Below, in pieces: positions 3-64,000 of a DNA stretch of 64,000 bases (position 1 is the stretch's first letter; every line of letters starts with the position of its first letter). The notes beneath the pieces are model-generated. The model was not told the DNA's origin. It was given only the letters and a program-made list of their open reading frames with translations, and made no database searches. A program made the position numbers and the translations under genes. Source of the stretch: an uncultured Pseudomonadota bacterium (GTDB lineage: Bacteria; Oederibacteriota; Muellerivitia; Muellerivitales; Muellerivitaceae); assembly GCA_963843375.1 (NCBI GenBank), contig CAWJKT010000009.1, positions 32,001 to 96,000 of the forward strand, in the 5' to 3' direction.

Positions 3-290
3 CGAATGGTCAGCGTGAAGACAGCTTTCAAAATAGCGTGCCGAAGGGCTGGGGTTGAGAATTTCAGGTTCCATGACCTCAGGCATTGTTCGGTCACGAA
101 TATGAGGAAAGCGGGGGTTAGTGACAACGTCACCATGTCGATTCACGGTCATAAGTCAGGCGCAGTATTTAGGAGATATGACCGGGTAGACAGGGAAGAC
201 CGCCACAAGGCCCTTGGAAAAGTTGAAAGTTTGATTGACACGCATATGACACTCGTGGAAAATCAGTCTCCCCTTGAAGGGAGTAAGTAA
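3..290 (+). CDS. Tyrosine recombinase/integrase, C-terminal part (5' end outside window)
   Basis: FRFHDLRH box, HGH and RRY catalytic Tyr region; sits just before a tRNA fragment. Confidence 0.9.
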   Translation, partial: RMVSVKTAFKIACRRAGVENFRFHDLRHCSVTNMRKAGVSDNVTMSIHGHKSGAVFRRYDRVDREDRHKALGKVESLIDTHMTLVENQSPLEGSK

Positions 291-291
291 T

Positions 292-320
292 GCAAAACCC
301 TTTTGTGGAAAGGGTTTTGC
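292..320 (+). terminator. Stem-loop after integrase
   Basis: gcaaaaccctt...aagggttttgc inverted repeat. Confidence 0.5.
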
Positions 321-353
321 AAGATGGAACGTAGATTGTAAAAAGTTGAGCTA

Positions 354-403
354 GCCGCCTTGTAAGCGGCAGGTCACCGGTCCGATTCCGGTCGCCAGCT
401 CCA
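354..403 (+). tRNA. tRNA-Thr(TGT) 3' fragment (att core), not a full tRNA
   Basis: Anticodon stem gccgc/gcggc with loop cttgtaa; T-arm accgg-tccgatt-ccggt; cgccagc-t-cca; no 5' acceptor strand or D arm upstream. Confidence 0.85.
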
Positions 404-563
404 TTTTTTAAAAAATATGTTCCCAGCATGTTTTAAAAGCCTTTGCCTGTAAGGATTTTAGTGATCTTACAGGCAAAGGCTTACTTTTTGAAATGATCAT
501 CAAAGATCATCAGTGCGCCTAAAAATTCATAAAAAATCAAATCATAAGACTCCTATAAGACAC
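359..563 (+). repeat. Direct repeat copy 1 (att junction: tRNA-Thr core, hairpin, arm-like repeats)
   Basis: Near-identical to 57490-57695 (about 3 differences by eye). Confidence 0.95.
437..482 (+). terminator. Hairpin downstream of tRNA fragment
   Basis: aagcctttgcctgtaag...cttacaggcaaaggctt followed by T-run; also at 57568-57613. Confidence 0.7.
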
Positions 564-795
564 GAACTAAAAGCCTACTATATATGGTAGTTACACATTT
601 ATTTGTTTTAGCTCCCAATCCCTTGTTTACATAGATAGGCCTGAAAATAATTTAAAACCAACCTAAAGACTCAATAGGTTTAAGGAAACATGTAGATTGT
701 GGAGATTAAGTTTTGCCCAGCTTGTTAAATTTACTTGAACGTCATTAGAATCCGAAGATTGGCGTTTAACATTCTTTTGAGAAAAGGACAAGGAA

Positions 796-1059
796 ATGAG
801 AAGTAAAGGATGCGAAAGACTAGGGGCCAAACTCTTGACCATCGGTTTAAATTCCGGCAAAGCTGAGTTGTTCCAAGAAGCGGTTGTGGAAATAGTGGAA
901 AATCTTGGTGGGGTTGAAGCTTTTGCAAAGAAAGCAAAAATGTCTGTCCTGCAGTTAAAAAAAGCCTTAGCGAGTCGAGAAGCATTTCAAAGATGGGTTG
1001 ATATAGCCAAGATCGTGAAGGTACTAAGCAATAGCCGGATGGCATTTCATGTAAAATGA
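796..1059 (+). CDS. Divergent HTH addiction-module antidote-like protein
   Basis: EIVENLGGVEAFAKKAKMS...W..I.K pattern parallels the 1242 and 60903 proteins. Confidence 0.5.
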   Translation: MRSKGCERLGAKLLTIGLNSGKAELFQEAVVEIVENLGGVEAFAKKAKMSVLQLKKALASREAFQRWVDIAKIVKVLSNSRMAFHVK

Positions 1060-1241
1060 ATCGGATTGTAGGGCATGATAATTATTTATGACACAATAGA
1101 TTCAAAGTCTATCGGCTACACTGCCACATCATTTCGGATTCGACTTTAAGCACGATTTTTCCCAATAAAATGATGGTTTACACTAAGCCACTACATAGCA
1201 AAAGCCATTAAGTATTGGGGACTTTACAACGGAGGGCAAAA

Positions 1242-1553
1242 ATGACACGTCGAACGGTCGATCATCATGAATTTCTTTTGAAGGAACTTAAGGACCCTGA
1301 AATCCGAAAGGGTTATCTGAACGCCGCCCTGGACGGGTGGGATAAAAAACATTTTCTTTCTTCTCTTAAAAACGTGGTGGACGCATTGGGCGGCATTGGT
1401 AAACTTGGCGCCGAAACTATATTAAGCCGCCAGCATCTTTACGATATGCTTTCCGAGAACGGCAACCCCACGTGGGAGAGTATCCTCAAAGTTGCCCACG
1501 CTTTCCGGTTGAAAGTTCATTTTGAATTGGAACCAGCCAGTAAAAGGCACTAA
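1242..1553 (+). CDS. Addiction-module antidote HTH protein (HI1420-like), orphan
   Basis: YLNAAL...VVDALGGIGKL...SRQHLYDMLSENGNPTW; RBS ggaggg. Confidence 0.85.
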   Translation: MTRRTVDHHEFLLKELKDPEIRKGYLNAALDGWDKKHFLSSLKNVVDALGGIGKLGAETILSRQHLYDMLSENGNPTWESILKVAHAFRLKVHFELEPASKRH

Positions 1554-1663
1554 GATTTTGCAGGGGAAGTTTCCCTCTCCTGCACCAATACTCCAGCTTA
1601 TTTTCCACGACCACACATTTTCAAGTAATCGATGATCTGCCACTTATCAGCTAGGCTACTAGG

Positions 1664-1691
1664 TGTCCACTATGAGGACCCAGATTGAACA
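1664..1691. repeat. Degenerate 28-bp 11-6-11 putative recombination site
   Basis: tgtccactatg-aggacc-cagattgaaca; matches sites at 61306, 62594, 63471. Confidence 0.6.
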
Positions 1692-1747
1692 GAAAAAGCA
1701 CTTTTAACCTTGGATAATCCGTTACCCTTCGAAAAGTGTAACGCTTT

Positions 1748-1775
1748 CGGAGTTCGATTCCCCGTGGGGCCACCA
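1748..1775 (+). tRNA. tRNA 3' fragment (probably Glu), possible att remnant
   Basis: cggag-ttcgatt-ccccg T-arm, then tggggcc-a-cca. Confidence 0.55.
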
Positions 1776-2218
1776 GTTTTTTCGTTTGTTTACCTAGGTT
1801 ATGACGCTTAAATTTTTCTGATCTAACCCTGATCTAACAAGTTTTCCTCTTCCTCAAGACTAAAAGTGAAGTGCTTACTCAAGTCAGGTTTTAAATTATT
1901 AAAGACGCAATAGATTTAAAGTCTATTGGATTCACTGAAAAATCAAGGAGGTTTCCCCAAAACTGGACCGCCAAAATATTAGTATTAGATTTGTAATTCC
2001 GTGTGAAATGGGAATTATTAATAACAACAAAGTAAGGGGTTATTGTCAAGTTATCCACAAAGACACTGAACTCCGGACTATCAATTTGATCTTTTTAAAA
2101 TGAAAATTAAGAAACTTGATGGGGCTCATACATTAATCATAAATGCAAGAGTAGAATTAAATTGATCGCTCAGGTAATTGTTTTTAGAAAACTCGACTGT
2201 TTTTCTTGAAGGCATTTC

Positions 2219-3886
2219 ATGCGAATAGAAAATCTCGATATAAATGAATTACTGGAATTAAGCCCCAAGAGGGGAATTGTTCATTTCGCGGGCCAGCGGG
2301 CTTTGATTTTTGACGCTGTGACTCACGGGATGCTTCGCAATGAGCTCGTTGATAGTTTTGGGGAAAGAACTGCTCGGGGCATTCTTACGCGCTACGGTTA
2401 TATTCACGGCAGGCGGCTTGCCGAAACCCTTAAAGATAAATATAAATGGGTCAACCAAGAGGAATGGCAAAAAGCCGGAGCGCGGATTTATGCCTTATTG
2501 GGTCTTTCTCTGCTGGACTCGGATAGCCCCACTACTTTTAGTTCTGAGGGTGGAACTTTTCACGTCTCCTACGAAGCGGAGCAGCATTTAATTCTCAACG
2601 GCCGTTCGAACAATCCGGTCTGTTGGAATCTTTGTGGAATCATCAGTGGTTACCAAAGTGTAGCATTGGGTAAGGAAATGTACGCGTTGGAAGATAAGTG
2701 TATGGGAAAGGGAGACCTGTTTTGTCATGTGGTCATCAAGACCAAGGAAGAATGGGGCGACAAGGTTGCGGATGAACTGGCGGTTTTCAAACGGGTTGGA
2801 ATTGACGAGGCTTTGGAGTGTGCCGCCGCCAAGTTGAAACAGGTCGAAAGCGAATTAATTGAAAAAACCCGCAAGCTAAATCTCAGCGCCAAAATCAATG
2901 ATGATCCGACGGAACGCATGACCAGAAGTCCCGAGATGCGCAAATTGATGGAACTGGCCAAAACCATCGCAGCGACGGACTCCACGGTTATGATTACGGG
3001 CGAGAGCGGCTCGGGCAAGGAAAGGGTAGCTCGTTTCGTGCACGACCAGTCCTTGCGCGCGGAAGGTCCCTTTATCGCCGTGAATTGCGGAGCTATCACC
3101 GAGACCCTGCTGGAAAGTGAACTTTTTGGCCACGCCCGGGGAGCTTTTACGGGAGCGGCGACGGACCGCCCGGGTCTTTTTGAGGCGGCCAACGGTGGTA
3201 CCCTTTTCCTTGATGAAGTTGGTGAAATTAGTCTTCCCATGCAGGTGAAACTACTTCGGGTACTTCAAGAACGGGAAGTTAGGCGTGTGGGTGAGAATAA
3301 AAGCCGTTCCATCAATGTGCGTATTGTCAGCGCCACCAATAAGATCATGAAAACCGAAGTGGCGCAAAAACGGTTCCGCGAGGATATTTATTACCGGCTG
3401 AACGTAGTCGAATTAACGGTTCCTCCCTTGCGCCACCGCAGGGAGGACATTCTTCCCCTGGCCCAGTTCCTTCTGGCGGAATCCGCCCTTCAAATGAAGC
3501 GGTCTGTGGACGGATTGACAACCGAAGCGGCTGATTGTTTGATGGGTTATGACTGGCCCGGCAATGTTCGCGAACTGGCCAATGCCATGGAGCGGGCGGT
3601 GGCTGTGACTAAGACCAATAGGATCGATGTCGGGGATTTTCCGCCGGAAGTACGATTAGGGAAGTCTTTAGTTTCTAATGCGGGTGTTCCACGGTCCTTA
3701 AGGGATATGGAGAAGGATTGCATCATGGCCGCGTTGGAAAAAACCGAAGGCAATCGTTTCAAAACCGCCGAGCTCATGGGGGTGGGTGTGGCGACGCTTT
3801 ATCGAAAGATCAAGACTTACCGATTGGATAAGACGAAAATCCAAAAAAACGTTAGGAAGCGTGGTTATGCCCGTGGACGAATATGA
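2219..3886 (+). CDS. Sigma54-dependent enhancer-binding activator (XylR_N + V4R + AAA+ + Fis HTH)
   Basis: GESGSGKE, ESELFGH, GAFTGA, LFLDEV, WPGNVREL; N-terminal XylR-like region with Cys-bearing V4R. Confidence 0.95.
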   Translation: MRIENLDINELLELSPKRGIVHFAGQRALIFDAVTHGMLRNELVDSFGERTARGILTRYGYIHGRRLAETLKDKYKWVNQEEWQKAGARIYALLGLSLLDSDSPTTFSSEGGTFHVSYEAEQHLILNGRSNNPVCWNLCGIISGYQSVALGKEMYALEDKCMGKGDLFCHVVIKTKEEWGDKVADELAVFKRVGIDEALECAAAKLKQVESELIEKTRKLNLSAKINDDPTERMTRSPEMRKLMELAKTIAATDSTVMITGESGSGKERVARFVHDQSLRAEGPFIAVNCGAITETLLESELFGHARGAFTGAATDRPGLFEAANGGTLFLDEVGEISLPMQVKLLRVLQEREVRRVGENKSRSINVRIVSATNKIMKTEVAQKRFREDIYYRLNVVELTVPPLRHRREDILPLAQFLLAESALQMKRSVDGLTTEAADCLMGYDWPGNVRELANAMERAVAVTKTNRIDVGDFPPEVRLGKSLVSNAGVPRSLRDMEKDCIMAALEKTEGNRFKTAELMGVGVATLYRKIKTYRLDKTKIQKNVRKRGYARGRI

Positions 3887-3929
3887 TTATTATTGGCTTT
3901 CAAAACTAAGGGTTAAGCTTATCGTGACT

Positions 3930-4187
3930 TTATTTGGCGGTATTTTGAGACTGATTTTGTGTTATGGACGAGCTTTCACCATAAGCTCCCCAATTGTGCC
4001 CGAAGATATGGTCGCAAAAGAAAACGTAGAGGCCGAATAGGGCTAATCCCGCCAAAAGTCCTTTTCCCACAAAACCGGCATTGAAAAGGGGACGGGTCTT
4101 GTTGGTTAATTTTAAATTGTGACCAGCCTCAAAATCGTTTTTTTCCTCAATGGTGCTTTCGTTCATTTCTGGTTGTGATGTCTCCAT
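3930..4187 (-). CDS. Small single-TM hypothetical protein
   Basis: RBS aagggg; one hydrophobic segment; downstream of DUF2934 gene. Confidence 0.5.
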   Translation of the reverse strand: METSQPEMNESTIEEKNDFEAGHNLKLTNKTRPLFNAGFVGKGLLAGLALFGLYVFFCDHIFGHNWGAYGESSSITQNQSQNTAK

Positions 4188-4248
4188 GTCTTATCCCCTT
4201 CTTTTAATTCATGTTTAAACTCAACTGATATTCTTATGCCGTTTTTCT

Positions 4249-4431
4249 TCAGATAGCCTTAAGGCTTTCCTGTATTTCCTTTTCCCCTTCTGCCCAATCG
4301 TGTAACTCGTCACCCGCTTGGGAATATCGTCCACGGTTCAACCAACTGTAATAAGCGGCTTCTTCGATCCTTTTGGTCGTCTCGCTAGCGCTGATAGGAG
4401 GAGCTGATTTGACTATTTTCTTAATGGACAT
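4249..4431 (-). CDS. DUF2934-like small protein
   Basis: RIEEAAYYSWLNRGR..GDELHDWAEGEKEI. Confidence 0.85.
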   Translation of the reverse strand: MSIKKIVKSAPPISASETTKRIEEAAYYSWLNRGRYSQAGDELHDWAEGEKEIQESLKAI

Positions 4432-4491
4432 ATGGATTTCCTTTTTGGTGATTTGGATTTAAAAATATTCATCGAAAGACTGATTAGTAAA

Positions 4492-4507
4492 AGCAAGAAA
4501 TAGGCCG
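4492..4507 (-). promoter_or_regulatory. Sigma54 -24/-12 promoter
   Basis: cGGcctatttcTTGCt on minus strand, canonical spacing. Confidence 0.7.
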
Positions 4508-4568
4508 TGTTTCCTTTGTCGTGTAACCTGATTTCATAAGCCCGATGGGAAGACTCTGTCCTTCCTTC

Positions 4569-4606
4569 TCGATCAGAATGATATTTTGATCGATCATTTT
4601 GATCGA
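4569..4606. promoter_or_regulatory. Putative enhancer (UAS), tandem ATCA-N3-TGAT
   Basis: tcgatcagaatgatattttgatcgatcattttgatcga; near-copies at 40008 and 41562. Confidence 0.7.
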
Positions 4607-4710
4607 AATAAACGAAATTCCGTAGAGGTTGAAAATTTACTATCGGCTCTTAAACGAATATTTCCTTCCGATTTTGAAGTGTTCGAAAGGTTCGTTCTGA
4701 AATTTATGGA

Positions 4711-56987: not shown

Positions 56988-57300
56988 GTCAATACACATC
57001 GGACTAAGTGTTACAGGATTTTTCTCCCAGTGGGGCTTCTTATTTCTTAGCGTTGCTCTCGGTTCTGAAACCTATTCGGATTAACTCTACTTTTGATCTA
57101 ACTTTCTAGTCCGTTACGTTTTTCCTTTCTTTTGCGTTTGTGTTGATAATAGGAGTTGAACAATATCGCCGAGTGGCCCTATGTAAATCTTATCCCGGGA
57201 GGTTTAGTTGGATTTCTAAAATTTGACAAAATTCATGGATTTCCAGGTTATGATCTTGAATTAGAGAAAAAAACTTTGAAAAAGTTCAAAGCGTAAAATT

Positions 57301-57345
57301 TTGATAGACACGGATAAGACACTCGTGCAAAATCAGTCTCCCTTT
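57301..57345 (+). pseudogene. Remnant of integrase 3' end / arm region
   Basis: 40/45 identical by eye to 231-275. Confidence 0.7.
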
Positions 57346-57489
57346 GGGAAGAGTGGGTTATAAAAGCCAGTTGGTTAGAGGTTTTTTTCCGTTAATTTGC
57401 GAGTTCTTCAAAATTGACTTACCGCCATAGGCGGCAGGTCAATTGGCTTGAAATGGCTTAAAATAAAACGGAAAAAATCGAGAAGCTAG

Positions 57490-57695
57490 CTTGTAAGCGG
57501 CAGGTCACCGGTCCGATTCCGGTCGCCAGCTCCATTTTTTAAAAAATATGTTCCCAGCATGTTTTAAAAGCCTTTGCCTGTAAGGATTTTAGTGATCTTA
57601 CAGGCAAAGGCTTACTTTTTTGAAATGATCATCAAAGATCATCAGTGCTCCTAAAAATTCATAAAAAATCAAAACATAAGACTCCTATAAGACAC
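57490..57695 (+). repeat. Direct repeat copy 2 with tRNA-Thr fragment (57490-57534)
   Basis: Near-identical to 359-563. Confidence 0.95.
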
Positions 57696-57801
57696 CGAAG
57701 ATTTATTCATATTCCGATGGATATGACCTTGTCAACTTTAGTGACAGGAGTTAAAAGTAACAGGGTTTTAGTATTCCAAATGCAACCCTGGAAACCACGC
57801 C

Positions 57802-59533
57802 ATGAATTTCGGAAACTTTTTTAAAGCGATTGAGAAACACACTCCCCCAATATTGGTCGGTTTAGGGGTCTATTCAGGCTTTAAATTCACGCTTGAGGCC
57901 TTTGGGGTTATTGGTCTTTCTTTGACACCTTTTGACACTTTTGCGGCCCTTTCCGTGGGTTTTCTCTACATGTTTGAGAAGCATGTCCGTATTGACCATC
58001 TTTTAGCTTTTGCCCCCGCCGTTATAGCTCTTTCCTTTTGCCATGACTTTTTTGGGGTATTCCTGGGAAATGATGGATTTACCGGGGATGTGGTAATGGG
58101 GCTTTCCGTACTGATCGGCTTTTGTATTTACTTCATTCACTTCTTCATGCGCAAAACCTATGGAACACCAAGGGGAATCACCTGTAACCGAAGGAGGGAA
58201 ATTTTCCCTCTATTTGGACGCGGAGAACAAATATTTCATTCCAGACGAATTACTCAAATACCACACGGAGGTTATTGGATCTTCAGGGATGGGGAAAACC
58301 AATATCTTCAACTACATGATCGAGCAGGGAATTAAGAACGGAATTGGAATGTTCGTGTTCGATGCAAAATCCAATTACAACAAAACTATTCCCTATTACG
58401 CTTCCAAACACGGGCGACTTACTGATTTAAAATATTTCGATCTTGCTGATGTAAAACGGAGCCAGACCTATAACCCTGATTTCAAGGACAAACCGGATGA
58501 AGTTTTTAACGGTCTCATGAAGTCGATTTTTTATGGCCCGGTAACCCAGGAATTTTATCGTGACCAGGCCAGTGACGTTTTGAGCAACTTGACCAACCTT
58601 CTTTTCTTGGAGTTCAAGCACGTTACCCGGATGGATTATCAGAACCTTATATCCAACGAAATCAGGTCTTTTGCGACGATCAAAGCTTTGGCACGGAAGA
58701 CACGAAGAACACGGTTTCGGGAAAATACTTCCTGGAAAAATGGGTCAAAATGTCCGAGAAGGATAGGGAGCTGAACCTTTCAGGACTCACCAGCAAACTT
58801 GCAAGGTTCACCAGTCGGGAATGGTCCCCCCTTATCAATACCTTAAACCCAGATATCAAGATGAAGGATGTGGTTGAGAAACAACAGATATTCCTATTTG
58901 GAACATCTTCCCTGGTGAACCAGGAAGATTCCAAACCGGTCATTATTTCGGCCCTTATTGATCTTGGCGGGGGTTATAGGGCGGAGGCTTATTGAGAAGC
59001 CCGAAAGGCCCTTTTTTGTCTTTTTGGACGAGTTCTATACCGCCGCTTATCCGGGCCTCAATGACCTTATTTCCTTAGGGCGGGAAGCCAATGTTTGCTT
59101 CTTCCTTGCCCACCACAGCCTGGGCCAGTTGGGGGCGGTCAGCCAGGAATTCAAGGACGATATTCTTACTAACACCAACCACAAAATCGTCATGAATATC
59201 ACGGAGAAAGATACGGTCGATTTCTTTGCCTCGATATTCGGGACCAAAGTCACCAAGAAGGATGTTTATTCCTATGACACCCGTATTTCTCAACCTAAGG
59301 GAAGGACCGAGAAACAGGATGAGGAGTTCATCATTCATCCCAATTATTTAAGGGGAATGAAACGCGGGGAAGCGGTCTGCCGGATCGTTTATGTTTCTGG
59401 CCCCAAGGTATTCAAGATGAAATTGAAAGAAGTCAAACCGCCGCCTAGGGGATTTGATTATGTGGGTTGTGTTCCGATTCGAAATAACCATTTGAAAACA
59501 AATGATTCGAACAAAATTGAAGTTCCGGATTAG
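57802..59533 (+). pseudogene. Type IV coupling protein (VirD4/TraD-like), split over four frames
   Basis: N-terminal TMs; Walker A GSSGMGKT; Walker B FVFLDEF; GRE..V....HHSLGQL. Confidence 0.8.
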
Positions 59534-59674
59534 CGAGACGCCATCCAAAACAACCCCTCCAAAAAAAGAAGCAAAAGCCCCGGCCAAAAGTAAGCCTGTG
59601 GAGGTTGATCAACCCGACACGGAATTTATATCCAATGGAGAAAATTATAAAAAGACAAAGAAAGGAGAAGCGCA

Positions 59675-60488
59675 TTGAAGGCAATGATGGAAATAACGGA
59701 TTTGGAAACCGAACATCTGGTCTGGATTCATTCCAATAAATTCACGACTCCCGAATTATTCCACAAAAAATTCATGCCTAATCAGAGTTCCAGAAACGCC
59801 TACAAAATCCTAAAAAAATACGTAAACCCTGAAAGAGAACTTTTACATGTTCTGAAAACACCGGTGGGGAACAGTAATCTTTTCTTCTTAACCGCAGGGG
59901 CGTTGAGAAGTTTGGATGAAAACAACAAGATTTTGGTTAGGAGCAATAAATACCCGGTCAAAATCAACAACCACGAGAAAGAGCACGACCTAATGGTACA
60001 GACGGCTCGAATAAGATTCGAGTCATTGGAGGAACTGAAGGATATTTTTTGGGTTTCAGACTTTGAGATGAGATCAGGAATTACACCTTCCATTAAAGCT
60101 GAATACCTGGAAGGGAAGTTGAATAAGGAAAGGTGGCGTTCCAATGGGGCTAACCCCAATCCAAAAGGAAGAAGAACCCCGGATGGTTATTTTGAGGCTG
60201 ATATTGAAGGACCGAAGAATTTCGTTTTGCCTTTGAGCTTGAGAACCACCATTACAACGACGTAATCCTTCAAAGAATGACGGAGAATTTAAGAGGATGG
60301 TTTTCCTCGTGCCCTCAAGCTAATTGTATCCGCAACTCCAGGAAATGCGGTTCGAATGATCCGATCTCTTCAATCAAGGATTAAACCTGAGGAACAAAAC
60401 CAATGGTTTGTTTCCGATTTTGAAAGGGTGACTACCAAGCCATTCAAAAAATGCTGGCACCAATTGAATCATCCATTGGTGGATTAGT
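59675..60488 (+). pseudogene. Replication-relaxation-like protein, frameshifted near 60210
   Basis: wHTH-like N-terminus, EHDL, PDGYF, ELE motif in the next frame; follows coupling protein. Confidence 0.6.
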
Positions 60489-60555: not shown

Positions 60556-60906
60556 TTGGAAACAACGCCTTTTGAATTAAAGGATTATGAAACTCCTGAT
60601 GGCCGATGCCCTTACCAGGAATGGTATTCAGAGTTGGTCAAAAAGGACTTAAGGTCGGCAGTTGCTTTGGAAAAAAGGATTAGGCGGTTGGAGCAAGGTC
60701 TGCTGGGAGACTACAAAGAAATCGAAGAGGGGATTCTTGAACTGAGAATCCATTTAGGTCAGGGGTTTCGACTCTATGTCAGAAAAATTGGCAAGACCAT
60801 GATGCTTTTACTTGTTGGTGGGGAAAAGGGCAACCAAGAGCAGGACATCCGTAATGCCTTTAAATATTGGTATGAATTTAAAAGCCGAAATAAAGGAGTA
60901 AAGTGA
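60556..60906 (+). CDS. RelE/ParE-family addiction-module killer (HI1419-like)
   Basis: GRCPYQEW...RI.RL..G.LGDYK...ELRIH.G.G.RLY...LL.GG.K..Q..DI. Confidence 0.9.
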   Translation: METTPFELKDYETPDGRCPYQEWYSELVKKDLRSAVALEKRIRRLEQGLLGDYKEIEEGILELRIHLGQGFRLYVRKIGKTMMLLLVGGEKGNQEQDIRNAFKYWYEFKSRNKGVK

Positions 60907-61205
60907 TGAAAGGATTAAGGGATCATAAATCCGCAATCGTTGAGCGGTTAAAAAACGATGAACGTTTTAGAAAAGCGTATTTGAGCGAAGCGCTAAATGA
61001 AGATGAACCAGCTGTTGTTCTATCCATGCTCCGCGACATTGTGGATGCGACCAGGGGATTTACAAAACTAGCAAAAGAAACAGGTTTGGCCAGGCAAAGT
61101 CTTTACAAGGTCTTGTCAGATAAAGGGAATCCGGAATTTGGTAGTGTTTGGAAGATTGTCCGCATATTGCGAAAAAAGAATCAAACTTTGGTTTACGCTC
61201 GATAA
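60903..61205 (+). CDS. Addiction-module antidote HTH protein
   Basis: YLSEAL...LAKETGLARQSLYKVLSDKGNPEF; overlaps toxin stop. Confidence 0.9.
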   Translation: MMKGLRDHKSAIVERLKNDERFRKAYLSEALNEDEPAVVLSMLRDIVDATRGFTKLAKETGLARQSLYKVLSDKGNPEFGSVWKIVRILRKKNQTLVYAR

Positions 61206-61305: not shown

Positions 61306-61333
61306 TGTCCACGACGGGGACCCATCCTGGACA
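61306..61333. repeat. 28-bp 11-6-11 putative recombination site
   Basis: tgtccacgacg-gggacc-catcctggaca. Confidence 0.8.
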
Positions 61334-61434
61334 ACTAAATGTTATGTTCGAAATGTTGAAGGTTGGAAACCAAACCAAGAGATCGTCGCGCCAGCCCGCA
61401 ATCCGACCCTTTTTTTCTGAACCTGGGAGAAAAC

Positions 61435-62583
61435 ATGAATAAAACAAAAGTTCTAGTGGTGGGTGGGGGCCTCGTCGGCCTCTCCATCGCTTGGCACCTC
61501 AAAAAACGCGGTGCATGGCCAGTAGTTCTGGATCGTCACGAGCTCGCGCAAGAAGCATCCGCCGCTGGTGCGGGGATGTTGCCCCTCCACAGTGTGGCAT
61601 TCGATACCCCGGAACTCTATGAACTAAGCCGTTTGTCCTACCGCCTGTATCCGTCCTGGGTGAAGGAACTTAAGCGCGCTTCGGGGTTGGACCCCGAATG
61701 GGAGAAGTCGGGATCGATGGGGCTTTTGTTTTCCGCGACGGAAGAAAAGAACGCACGGATGCTTTCCAAACGTTTGGTGGAGTTGGATATGGAGGTTTTG
61801 TGGTTGAGCGGCAAGGAAGCCCGCCGCAAGGAACCCGCATTGCCGAAAGATGTCCGCAAGGCCATGTATCTACCCGAAACCACCCAGATCCGCCCATCCG
61901 CCATGTGTGCGGTGGTGGTGGAAGCGGTGCGGCGCACCGGGGTTTCCATCCATTCCAACGAGCCGGTGAAATCGCTAGTGGTGCGTGGTGGCCGGGTCCA
62001 AGGCGTTAAAACCGCTAACCGAACAATAAAGGCCGACGCCGTAGTATTGGCTACCGGGGCTTGGGCGCCGGAACTGTTAAGCCCGCTTGGAATCGATTTG
62101 CCGGTGTATCCCCTTCGGGGACAGGTACTGCTTCTTCAAGGTCCTCCCTCCGGGATCAAACACATCCTTTTCGCGACCGGCTACTACATGGTGCCGCGCC
62201 GGGGCGGTGAATTGTACGTCGGCAGTACCTTGGAAAAAGCCGGGTTTGAAAGGGCCGTGACGCCTGAGGGTATTGCGACCCTGGCGACTGCGGCCAGGCG
62301 GATGGCGCCGGCTTTGTCGCCGCTGCGGGTTTCGGGTTATTTCTCCGGTTTTCGCCCCGGTTCGGTGGATGGGCATCCTTTCCTGGGTGCGGTTCCGGGC
62401 ACGGATGGACTTTATATTGCGGCGGGCCACCACACGCATGGGCATCTGCTGGCGGCCGCTACTGGTTACTTGATGACGCAATTAATACTGGATGGGAAGC
62501 CGGAAATGGATCTCTTGCCATTTGTCGTGGGCCGCAAGCCCCATGTACTTCAACCGCCCTGGTGGATGAAACTTTCACAATGA
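61435..62583 (+). CDS. thiO: Glycine oxidase ThiO-like FAD oxidoreductase
   Basis: GGGLVG, ASAAGAGML, P.RGQ, GFRP; GC-rich relative to flanks. Confidence 0.75.
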   Translation: MNKTKVLVVGGGLVGLSIAWHLKKRGAWPVVLDRHELAQEASAAGAGMLPLHSVAFDTPELYELSRLSYRLYPSWVKELKRASGLDPEWEKSGSMGLLFSATEEKNARMLSKRLVELDMEVLWLSGKEARRKEPALPKDVRKAMYLPETTQIRPSAMCAVVVEAVRRTGVSIHSNEPVKSLVVRGGRVQGVKTANRTIKADAVVLATGAWAPELLSPLGIDLPVYPLRGQVLLLQGPPSGIKHILFATGYYMVPRRGGELYVGSTLEKAGFERAVTPEGIATLATAARRMAPALSPLRVSGYFSGFRPGSVDGHPFLGAVPGTDGLYIAAGHHTHGHLLAAATGYLMTQLILDGKPEMDLLPFVVGRKPHVLQPPWWMKLSQ

Positions 62584-62593
62584 AGAAGAGTTT

Positions 62594-62621
62594 TGTCCAA
62601 TACACGGACCCGTCGTGGACA
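62594..62621. repeat. 28-bp 11-6-11 putative recombination site (conserved arm on right)
   Basis: tgtccaataca-cggacc-cgtcgtggaca. Confidence 0.8.
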
Positions 62622-62668
62622 AGGTTAAAAGGCTTACAAGGGGCATCTTTGAAATGGCAGGTTAAGAG

Positions 62669-63466
62669 GTGTTTATGAAGAATCTTGGTAAAGAATTATT
62701 GGTAATAGTGGGCCTGATAGCCGCCTTTATGATTTCAGAAAATTTGTTGGGCCGGATTCTCTTTCATTTTTCGCTTATTTCTATCGCTACCGACCAATTT
62801 GATATTCATTGGAATAATCTTTGGCTTCATAGTTGCTGGTCGACGATCGGCTTGATCTCAACGGTTTGCTATGCCTCATGGCTATTGAAGCTGAACCTCT
62901 GGAAAACAGTTCAGTTTCTGGGCGTTAAAGCTTTTAACTCCCAACAAGTGCTCGTAGGGGTTTTAGCCGCTTTGCCAATATTGGCTGTTCACTGGATATC
63001 CCTTCAATTTTATTCTCAGCCGGGAGTTGGGTTACGTTCAAACTGGGCACCTTATCTAGCTTATACAATTATCGGTGCCGGCTTTTTTGAGGAATTAACC
63101 TTTAGGGGTATGTTTTTTCAGTATTTTCGAAAAAACCATTCTTTCATGGTGGCTGCAACCCTTTCCGGAATTTTTTGGAGTTTGATGCATCTGTACATGT
63201 CCTCTCAGCTGGGAGACATTTGGGTCTCAATGGTTTTGGCTTTCGTGCTAGCTTTTCCGGCGGCTTATTTATTTGAAAAAGGCGGTATGGTGGTTTGGGG
63301 TTGGATGATCGTGCATTTAAGTGTCGACTCGACGCAACTTTTTATAAATCCGAATGGTTCTAGTTACTCGGATCAATGGATTCTGGGTCTCGTCGCGCTG
63401 ATAGTATCCGTGATTATCACCTTTCCTTTAGCGAATTGGATTTTGAAACCGGCTAAATTCAAATAA
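62669..63466 (+). CDS. CPBP/Abi family intramembrane metalloprotease
   Basis: EELTFRG, F.L.H, H...D motifs. Confidence 0.88.
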   Translation: MFMKNLGKELLVIVGLIAAFMISENLLGRILFHFSLISIATDQFDIHWNNLWLHSCWSTIGLISTVCYASWLLKLNLWKTVQFLGVKAFNSQQVLVGVLAALPILAVHWISLQFYSQPGVGLRSNWAPYLAYTIIGAGFFEELTFRGMFFQYFRKNHSFMVAATLSGIFWSLMHLYMSSQLGDIWVSMVLAFVLAFPAAYLFEKGGMVVWGWMIVHLSVDSTQLFINPNGSSYSDQWILGLVALIVSVIITFPLANWILKPAKFK

Positions 63467-63470
63467 AGAT

Positions 63471-63498
63471 TGTCCACGACGGGGACCCGCGTTGGACA
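63471..63498. repeat. 28-bp 11-6-11 putative recombination site
   Basis: tgtccacgacg-gggacc-cgcgttggaca. Confidence 0.8.
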
Positions 63499-63595
63499 AT
63501 AAAAATCCCTTTTAAACCTAATCCTTCTATTGCGCTTCGGACGAAGCGCAGCGGGTATTAACCCTTTTCTTTTTTTGACACGTTGGCAATTTTAC

Positions 63596-63621
63596 TTGAC
63601 CTATTACGCACCTCGTAATAG
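63596..63621 (+). promoter_or_regulatory. higBA promoter/operator
   Basis: TTGAC followed by palindrome CTATTACG-cacct-CGTAATAG. Confidence 0.7.
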
Positions 63622-63629
63622 CATGGCTT

Positions 63630-63908
63630 ATGATTCGAACTTTTCGAGATAAAGAGGTTGAAGCCCTTTTTCTGGACAATGTTGTTCCGCGTTTTAGGAA
63701 TATTGAACGTGTTGCCCGGAGGAAACTTCTCTACTTGAACGCCGCGAAAAGACTCGAGGATTTACGGATGCCGCCGGGCAATCAGTTGGAGGCGCTGAAA
63801 GGTGATCGGAAAGGCCAGCACAGCATCCGCGTCAACGACCAATGGAGAATTTGTTTTACCTGGCACGAAGGTGAAGCGGTAAATGTTGAAATAGTCGACT
63901 ATCACTGA
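63630..63908 (+). CDS. higB: HigB toxin
   Basis: MIRTF...PPGNQLEALKGDRKGQHSIRVNDQWRICF...VDYH. Confidence 0.95.
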   Translation: MIRTFRDKEVEALFLDNVVPRFRNIERVARRKLLYLNAAKRLEDLRMPPGNQLEALKGDRKGQHSIRVNDQWRICFTWHEGEAVNVEIVDYH

Positions 63909-63914
63909 GGTGAC

Positions 63915-64000
63915 ATGATGAACACAAAAGCAAAAAAAATGGACCCGATCCATCCTGGGGAAGTGCTTTTAGAGGAATTTATGAAACCGATGGGTATCAG
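63915..64000 (+). CDS. higA: HigA antitoxin, 5' part
   Basis: MMNTKAKKMDPIHPGEVLLEEFMKPMGI. Confidence 0.9.
   Translation, partial: MMNTKAKKMDPIHPGEVLLEEFMKPMGI

Follow-up and report, generated by a model that had tools for sequence, protein, structure and literature searches.

What are the three short palindromes that punctuate one end of a 64,000-nucleotide stretch of DNA from an uncultured bacterium, and how did the unrelated genes between them come to be arranged as they are? The stretch (hereinafter the window) comprises positions 32001-96000 of contig C9 (CAWJKT010000009.1, assembly GCA_963843375.1) of the genome denoted here G000, and the palindromes are 28-mers of the form TGTCCA-N16-TGGACA. 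The original prediction, made from the letters of the window alone, took them for sites with the geometry of dif and alternating orientation, and the genes between them for modules of a pdif-like capture system. Comparison of the window with the rest of G000, with the congeneric genome G001 and with other genomes and public loci leads to a different answer: the arrays to which these 28-mers belong are gene-cassette arrays, probably built by site-specific recombination, outside the integron, pdif and repetitive extragenic palindromic (REP) families. The 28-mers themselves are probably, with appreciable room for doubt, the double-stranded core sites at which a chromosomal, integron-like system recombines its gene cassettes, by means of a recombinase provided in trans.

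The pattern matches the window at exactly three places, all of them intergenic, and is absent from 100 dinucleotide-preserving shuffles of the window, so that this part of the original prediction is borne out. The sites and the cassettes that they delimit are the following:

61306..61333, + strand: cassette site 1, TGTCCACGACGG-GGAC-CCATCCTGGACA, the first site of the array, with the consensus left arm, the variant right inner arm ATCC and 2 mismatches
61334..62593, + strand: cassette 1, FAD-dependent oxidoreductase (Pfam DAO, 5.5e-75), open reading frame (ORF) 61363-62583 with a probable ATG at 61436; G+C content (GC) 0.58 against 0.41-0.42 in the neighbours
62594..62621, + strand: cassette site 2, TGTCCAATACAC-GGAC-CCGTCGTGGACA, with a variant left arm, the consensus right arm, a + oriented centre and 4 mismatches in the + direction
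62622..63470, + strand: cassette 2, Rce1-like/CPBP membrane protease (Pfam), ORF 62669-63466, GC 0.42
63471..63498, + strand: cassette site 3, TGTCCACGACGG-GGAC-CCGCGTTGGACA, 3 mismatches, 4 bp past the stop codon of the CPBP gene
63499..64000, + strand: cassette 3, cut by the end of the window, higB 63630-63908 (HigB-like toxin, 2.1e-19) and the start of its partner gene

The sites indeed separate single modules that are unrelated to each other, namely an HI1420-type toxin-antitoxin pair, the DAO oxidoreductase, the Rce1/CPBP protease and HigB with its partner (Pfam assignments), and these modules differ in GC as had been judged by eye (0.41-0.42, then 0.58, 0.42 and 0.48 along the array). 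Two sites had been placed within about 10 bp of a stop codon, and the measured distances are 10 bp for site 2 (stop at 62583) and 4 bp for site 3 (stop at 63466); for site 1 the distance is 100 bp (stop at 61205). The claim of alternating orientation fails, given that the asymmetric centre GGAC (within GGACCC) lies on the + strand at all three sites. The observation behind that claim, an invariant arm that appears on the left, then on the right, then on the left, is literally true, in that site 2 carries the consensus arm on the right and a variant arm (AATACAC) on the left, but only the variant inner-arm bases switch side, not the orientation of the site, which departs from the consensus by 4 mismatches in the + direction and by 6 in the - direction (the latter counted by hand).

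The array continues past the end of the window, as the original prediction had proposed to check, with the next sites at window-equivalent positions 64275, 64894, 67967 and 68297, the first of which (C9:96275) closes cassette 3. Across G000, 35 sites match the exact pattern, compared with none for a reversed-pattern control, and 64 match, with up to 6 mismatches, the consensus TGTCCACGACGG-GGAC-CCGTCGTGGACA derived from these approximately 64 copies. Conservation is limited to about 30 bp (the 28-mer becomes 30 bp long if the flanking T/A is counted), being strong at positions 1-18 and 23-28, weak at positions 19-22 and at background level outside the site. The copies are not scattered in the manner of operators or REP elements: they form arrays on contigs C6, C9, C10 and C18, and 57 of the 64 have another copy within 5 kb (14.6% expected under random placement). 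The contigs that bear arrays are 79-373 kb long in G000 and 0.33-2.05 Mb long in G001, and the arrays are located amid chromosomal genes. For sites that lie within 5 kb of each other, the median spacing is 877 bp (range 232-4689), and the orientation is the same in 45 of the 47 neighbouring pairs; the nearest upstream ORF points in the same direction as the site in 54 of 59 cases, at a median gap of 29 bp. Both discordant pairs stem from a single perfect copy, C9:261806-261833, which is reversed within an otherwise + array and may be a trace of inversion or of insertion in the other polarity. The cargo of the arrays includes VapBC, MazEF, HigBA, RelBE/YafQ, PIN_3/HicB, BrnA, GNATs, aldo-keto reductases, penicillin amidase, small oxidoreductases and many unknowns, and GC jumps from one cassette to the next across the arrays.

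The evidence that carries the cassette interpretation is the behavior of homology at the sites. The cassette genes of the window array have no counterpart in G001, where only the sites match. Elsewhere, one stretch is collinear between the two genomes except for a block of about 21 kb with sites, which is present in G001 and absent from G000. At least seven segments of G000 recur in other arrays of G001, with homology that extends from site to site (for example, C9:258710-259400 and G001 C2:1196595-1197285). The cleanest example is provided by a cassette of 920 bp, of which two arrays of one metagenome-assembled genome (MAG) contain copies with 100% identity, running from the first base of the upstream site to 1 nt past the downstream site, with unrelated DNA outside. 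For the cassettes of the window itself, no DNA-level copy of the DAO and CPBP cassettes was found among the compared loci; two other arrays (one in G000, C10:141673-142455, and one in G001) contain paralogous CPBP cassettes that terminate at sites, and the 3′ part of cassette 3 has a copy of 93% identity in another genome (L181), in the layout of which a site falls where the match ends. The module content of relatives thus changes exactly at the sites and, because homology stops there, the comparison of module boundaries that the original prediction had suggested comes out in favor of cassettes. The general notion of cassette capture and shuffling at a non-canonical site, with no recombinase assigned, is accordingly supported by these site-bounded module differences.

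The sites themselves record the exchange. In a set of 302 unique site contexts from G000, G001 and public loci, the centre is GGAC in 273 and the left inner arm is CGACGG in 210, compared with only 96 that retain the consensus right inner arm. Homology that abuts the site is shared on the left only by 26 pairs, on the right only by 64 and on both sides by 1; 42 of the 64 right-only pairs are accounted for by group II introns (see below) and, once intron pairs are removed, there remain 22 left-only families, 14 right-only families and 1 pair that shares both flanks. When the shared flanks are at least 99.7% identical, all differences within the site fall at position 16 or beyond in the 7 left-sharing pairs and at position 1 in the 4 right-sharing pairs. 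Right-arm positions 20-22 agree in a fraction 0.86-0.91 of the right-only pairs (intron pairs included), compared with 0.54-0.65 of the left-only pairs and 0.52-0.63 of random pairs. From these flank-specific differences it follows that the half-sites, with their arm variants, travel together with their own flanks and that the point of exchange is central.

The cassette system is confined to one family of the candidate division FCPU426, an uncultured phylum of soil and peat, with a single copy of the site in the sister family. Of 24 further family genomes, 18 contain an 18-mer core of the site, as does the only sister-family genome (1/1); the core is missing from all 15 genomes from the rest of the phylum (reversed control, 0). 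The site is conserved base for base across 14 of the 32 genera searched, within flanks that are unrelated. Four relatives (G017, G024, G029 and G036) have no copy of the motif, and G003 has a diverged three-site array. A stringent scan with one genome per species gave at least 155 stretches with sites, and a metagenome scan at least 153 further ones; the titles among the 80 loci listed are candidate division FCPU426 (52), uncultured proteobacterium (20), Proteobacteria bacterium (2), uncultured bacterium (5) and Candidatus Firestonebacteria (1).

In the consensus, two perfectly inverted 13-bp arms flank an asymmetric GA (within GGGGACCC); readings as 12-4-12, 11-6-11 or 10-8-10 are possible as well. 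To judge by layout, this geometry would fit either the crossover site of a serine recombinase (13-2-13 or 12-4-12) or a simple tyrosine recombinase core (11-6-11 or 10-8-10), and the serine version appears to fit at least as well as the tyrosine one: the consensus shows the complete layout of a serine crossover site, that is, about 26-30 bp with inverted half-sites of 12-13 bp and a central dinucleotide. Site I of Tn3 res is described as a 28-bp crossover site (PMC2602789) and, in the account given for Bxb1, the asymmetric central dinucleotide alone sets the polarity, and the inner 28 bp are common to attP and attB (PMC3642061). The cassette site resembles site I of Tn3/gamma-delta res and the inner part of the Bxb1 sites in its 28-bp length, its inverted halves of 12-13 bp and its central asymmetric dinucleotide, which could set polarity, but differs from Tn3 res in the lack of accessory sites and from the Bxb1 att sites in the lack of attP/attB asymmetry. 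The 28-mer may also resemble the resolvase half-site consensus, for which the literature search gave no match. With lox and FRT, the cassette site shares inverted arms around an asymmetric centre, such that direct repeats would lead to excision of a circle and re-integration at any copy. The Cre and Flp sites are of the 13-8-13 type, and the enzyme is encoded by the same element, whereas the arms of the cassette site stay symmetrical until 2 bp from the centre, and no cognate enzyme lies beside it.

In the model that we propose, a cassette consists of a right half-site, a short 5′ leader, one gene or toxin-antitoxin pair, and a left half-site; the several arrays of a genome are head-to-tail series of such cassettes, the sites being direct repeats throughout. 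Each cassette would be cut out, copied and put back whole by conservative site-specific recombination, with strand exchange at the centre of the site and polarity set by the asymmetric GA, through a recombinase that would act in trans from elsewhere in the genome. An excised circle would carry one site and could re-insert at any other copy; direct repeats of such a site predict precisely this excision and re-insertion, which would yield the observed pattern. We infer, in particular, a dedicated recombinase (as opposed to general recombination), a circular intermediate and the class of the enzyme.

The only recombinase that recurs next to the arrays is a serine recombinase of about 280 amino acids:

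G000 C9:137160-138005; G001 C2:163827-164660; G022 C61:35506-36306; also loci L079 and L328: serine recombinase of about 280 amino acids

In three genomes (G000, G001 and G022), this protein with Resolvase and Recombinase domains adjoins the terminal site of one array; the 3′ end of its gene faces that site, which is degenerate. It contains the catalytic and "Recombinase" domains only, with neither a zinc-ribbon nor a coiled-coil part, and is a C-terminally short form of enzymes of about 510-530 amino acids that are not located beside sites. It may have arisen from a large serine integrase by truncation, or else be a short form, in which case binding would be expected to be limited to an inner site of about 28 bp. 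The protein was not found in G005, G010, G016, G021 and G023. Even though the geometry fits well, we take the protein for a truncated bystander at a single inherited locus, not for the cassette enzyme, because its longer relatives are not by sites and because three site-rich genomes have no serine recombinase.

Among the tyrosine recombinases of five site-rich genomes, a comparison of coordinates found none near the arrays of G010. A family of phage-type integrases of about 367 amino acids, the genes of which are not adjacent to arrays, is accordingly retained only as a lead: among 25 genomes, 19 have both the integrase and the sites, 1 has sites only, 1 has the integrase only and 4 have neither, a co-occurrence that is confounded by the genomes with neither also being the smallest and by the non-independence of kin. 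A phage-type integrase of about 369 amino acids is encoded at C9:31181-32290, ending at window position 290. Its homologue in G001 directly precedes a block of genes that includes a TraD-like one; in G000, that block follows only after 57 kb (window 57.4-60.3 kb). A stretch of 48 bp in the window (57296-57347) recurs with 88-92% identity at three places on contig C4 of G001, one of which is between the integrase and the TraD-like block. This layout of integrase, TraD-like block and 48-bp repeat suggests islands stacked at one attachment site.

No canonical XerC or XerD was found over the cut-off in the family, which instead has one divergent Xer-like gene. Other families of the phylum possess canonical XerC and XerD; the family and its sister family have only the Xer-like gene, which is present in 23 of 24 family genomes and in the one sister-family genome (1/1), compared with 0 of 15 elsewhere, and which is also carried by family members without sites. 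At its start, in all 10 genomes examined, lies an AT-rich 11-6-11 palindrome, nnnnnnTATAA-CTRTAA-TTATAnnnnnn, the inner TATAA/TTATA and the spacer CTRTAA of which are conserved, whereas the outer arms vary and yet stay complementary; neither arm nor spacer is shared with the cassette site.

G000 C10:182387-183469; loci L371-L377: Xer-like gene with the palindrome at its start

The gene and the palindrome likely form a single-recombinase Xer/dif module that resembles xerS/difSL, where the recombinase gene also has its own palindrome at the start. At C8:94929-98359, three tyrosine recombinase genes (431, 340 and 423 amino acids) lie side by side, preceded by a palindrome, TTCACATAA-N6-TTATGTGAA, that is 2 mismatches away from the Xer-side one.

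Some of the sites are directly followed by group II introns, which begin 0-2 nt after base 28 of the site in 13 of the 302 contexts and are oriented in the same direction as the cassettes.

G000 C9:134162-137000; loci L082, L117, L122, L125 and others: group II introns at sites

Their identity is established by scores above the gathering thresholds of Rfam RF02003 (group-II-D1D4-4) and RF00029 (Intron_gpII) and by a reverse-transcriptase ORF. These introns constitute a site-specific homing guild comparable to the group IIC-attC introns of integrons; the latter, however, are described as lying in the orientation opposite to the cassettes (PMC7923331), unlike the co-oriented introns found here.

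How, then, does the cassette interpretation compare with the families of repeats that are already known? The similarity to sedentary chromosomal integrons and to clusters of attC sites lacking an integrase (CALINs) is extensive: the cassettes are co-oriented, mostly contain a single gene with the site just 3′ of it, are rich in toxin-antitoxin genes and unknowns, move as units and are common to different arrays and genomes with site-bounded homology; several arrays have no recombinase nearby; cassettes of 232-330 bp with no ORF occur, and group II introns sit at the sites. That the arrays are a classical integron or CALIN with an unusually short attC is nonetheless extremely improbable. There is no integrase, as the best score to the IntI model TIGR02249 in G000 is 47.5 bits against a cut-off of 265 bits, and none exceeds the cut-off in G001, G005, G010, G018 and G021; CALINs lack IntI by definition, so its absence is by itself no argument against a CALIN. 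No attI or Pc platform was identified either. More to the point, attC sites are described as 57-141 nt long, with R′′-L′′...L′-R′ boxes and a GTTRRRY core, and as conserved in structure rather than in sequence (PMC7923331), in contrast to a site of about 30 bp that has neither this layout nor the core, shows no structure-preserving covariation of the arms and is a sequence-conserved, double-stranded, near-perfect palindrome, not a folded single strand. A REP-like element or a transcribed 3′ hairpin that stabilises RNA or terminates transcription, spread by a transposase of the REP-associated tyrosine transposase (RAYT) type and with cassette boundaries as a by-product, would explain why the sites lie just 3′ of stop codons and are co-oriented with genes. 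A 12-bp stem is possible in the consensus, folding is better than in shuffles for sites 1 and 3 (z from -2.9 to -4.4), the introns insert right after the site as they do after stem-loops in the description of PMC7923331, and Y1 transposase genes are present in G001, G005, G010 and G021. However, Y1 (PF01797) has no match in G000 (80% complete) or in G018 (99% complete, 52 core matches), which has the most sites, and the sites are clustered in accessory arrays. Compensatory changes are lacking: when right arms were shuffled among sites, 1719 of 2000 shuffles reached the observed 774 Watson-Crick pairs (781.6 +/- 7.5 in the shuffles), and the inner stem is paired in only 55-75% of the 302 sites (55-64% at positions 8-21, 9-20 and 10-19). 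Furthermore, there is no T-run after the sites, site 2 folds no better than shuffles, and the presence of identical cassettes in different arrays is left unexplained. The REP reading, which the original prediction had named as a way in which it could fail, is therefore highly unlikely. No better placed is the pdif-like model, in which Xer recombination would move modules at sites that have the geometry of dif and alternate in orientation. Like the pdif modules of Acinetobacter, the arrays have 28-bp sites that can be parsed as 11-6-11 and discrete modules, often with toxin-antitoxin genes, and the recombinase is encoded elsewhere; in addition, the range of the Xer-like gene (23/24, 1/1, 0/15) equals that of the sites. 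But pdif sites are inversely oriented, are carried by plasmids and resemble the host dif, none of which applies to direct repeats on chromosomal contigs of up to 2 Mb in a family with no canonical XerC/XerD pair, and the Xer-like gene has its own unrelated palindrome in 10 of 10 genomes and is kept in family members without sites. We regard this possibility, and with it the analogy drawn by the original prediction, as very unlikely. The cassette site also differs from the candidate dif by the Xer-like gene, which is AT-rich and unrelated to it, and because four relatives have no copy of the motif, the motif is not a universal dif.

The main rival is short-homology recombination at a repeat that is kept for another reason: cassettes would be shuffled by homology with no dedicated recombinase, and the 28-mer would be retained for some other function, such as binding of a regulator at cassette boundaries, as proposed for the PeSL repeats. 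In T4-type phages, these repeats are reported to mediate modular shuffling and to give mini-circles, and are promoter-plus-terminator units (PMC2839356), which provides a precedent. The 28-mers are similar to PeSL in being short conserved repeats at gene boundaries in hyperplastic regions, with modular exchange and no dedicated recombinase known, and differ in that they are bacterial and chromosomal, have no terminator features and keep a strict polarity. In the window, none of the three sites is terminator-like, and there are 5 promoter-like hits compared with 4.1 +/- 2.1 in shuffles, so that the sites are not promoter-plus-terminator units of the PeSL kind. Several results count against site-specific recombination at the 28-mer and, in part, favor this rival. 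No recombinase recurs beside the arrays in an unbiased clustering of the ORFs near sites at about 80 genome loci; 617 kb of metagenome loci hold only one fragment of a serine recombinase; and PF00239 has no match in G005, G010 and G021, which are 90-99% complete with 15-20 core matches each. Within the conserved block, the point of exchange can be narrowed down only to an interval, strictly between positions 1 and 16, or between about 10-15 and 16 if older pairs are taken into account, and site-bounded homology alone cannot separate site-specific from short-homology recombination; the pairs within one family of copies are not independent, and all data come from MAGs. For the introns at least, to which the site serves as a stem-loop target, the palindrome is able to function as a hairpin. 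Neither an excised circle nor an empty site nor the skipping of a single cassette was found in public runs, for which only assembled contigs, short and shallow, were available; these runs contain loose ends at site edges, as expected from other copies of the repeat, and one contig of a relative with about 92% identity joins two cassettes in a different order. On the other side of the balance, 28 bp is marginal for RecA-type exchange; a near-palindrome would be expected to recombine in the inverted orientation as well, yet 45 of 47 neighbours keep their polarity; in the 7 most recent left-sharing pairs, the differences never start before position 16; and the site is conserved base for base across 14 of 32 genera amid unrelated flanks. 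On these grounds, we consider homology-driven shuffling unlikely, albeit a good deal less so than any of the other alternatives, and favor site-specific recombination at the 28-mer by an enzyme acting in trans.

Such a system is of significance because, among machines that accumulate single genes as cassettes and reshuffle them, only integrons are well understood, and the origin of systems of this kind is an open question. Here the same architecture, with arrays, 3′ sites, cargo rich in toxin-antitoxin genes and homing introns, appears to be built on a short double-stranded, sequence-conserved site in the absence of the integron integrase. Whether this amounts to a third bacterial gene-cassette platform beside integrons and pdif, one with a double-stranded palindrome of about 30 bp, polarity from a central dinucleotide, a recombinase that acts in trans and whose type has so far not been connected with cassette capture, and its own guild of introns in an uncultured soil and peat phylum, seems to us evenly balanced; no paper with the motif or with such a system was found in a literature search that covered sources other than subscription journals. 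Should a dedicated enzyme be found, it would imply convergent evolution of gene-cassette platforms and could provide a compact pair of a 28-30-bp site and a recombinase as a tool. The findings also show that cassette arrays of uncultured phyla escape detection when genomes are scanned for attC and IntI.

Upstream of the first site of the window, the array is preceded by two further features:

57467..60265, + strand: remnant of a TraD/TrwB-type coupling protein, low in GC and frameshifted, and a 196-amino-acid ORF with no Pfam hit
60556..61205, + strand: toxin-antitoxin pair, a 116-amino-acid ORF with no Pfam hit and a 100-amino-acid HI1420-type antidote protein, directly upstream of the first site

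The toxin-antitoxin pair is the boundary between a decayed mobile-element block and the array. A homologue of the TraD/TrwB-type block (79% identity) is also located just upstream of an array in G001; we treat the block as context of the array and not as a demonstrated part of the cassette machinery.

Two minor features of the arrays in G000 deserve mention. Some pairs of sites are only 232-330 bp apart and enclose no convincing ORF (C6:254861-255120, C9:99967-100324 and C18:59416-59761), a counterpart of the ORF-less cassettes of integrons; the first of these has a copy of 77% identity in G001 that is bounded by sites. At C6:48843-49742, an IS30-like transposase gene (HTH_38 and rve domains) lies between two sites inside an array, on the strand opposite to the cassettes.

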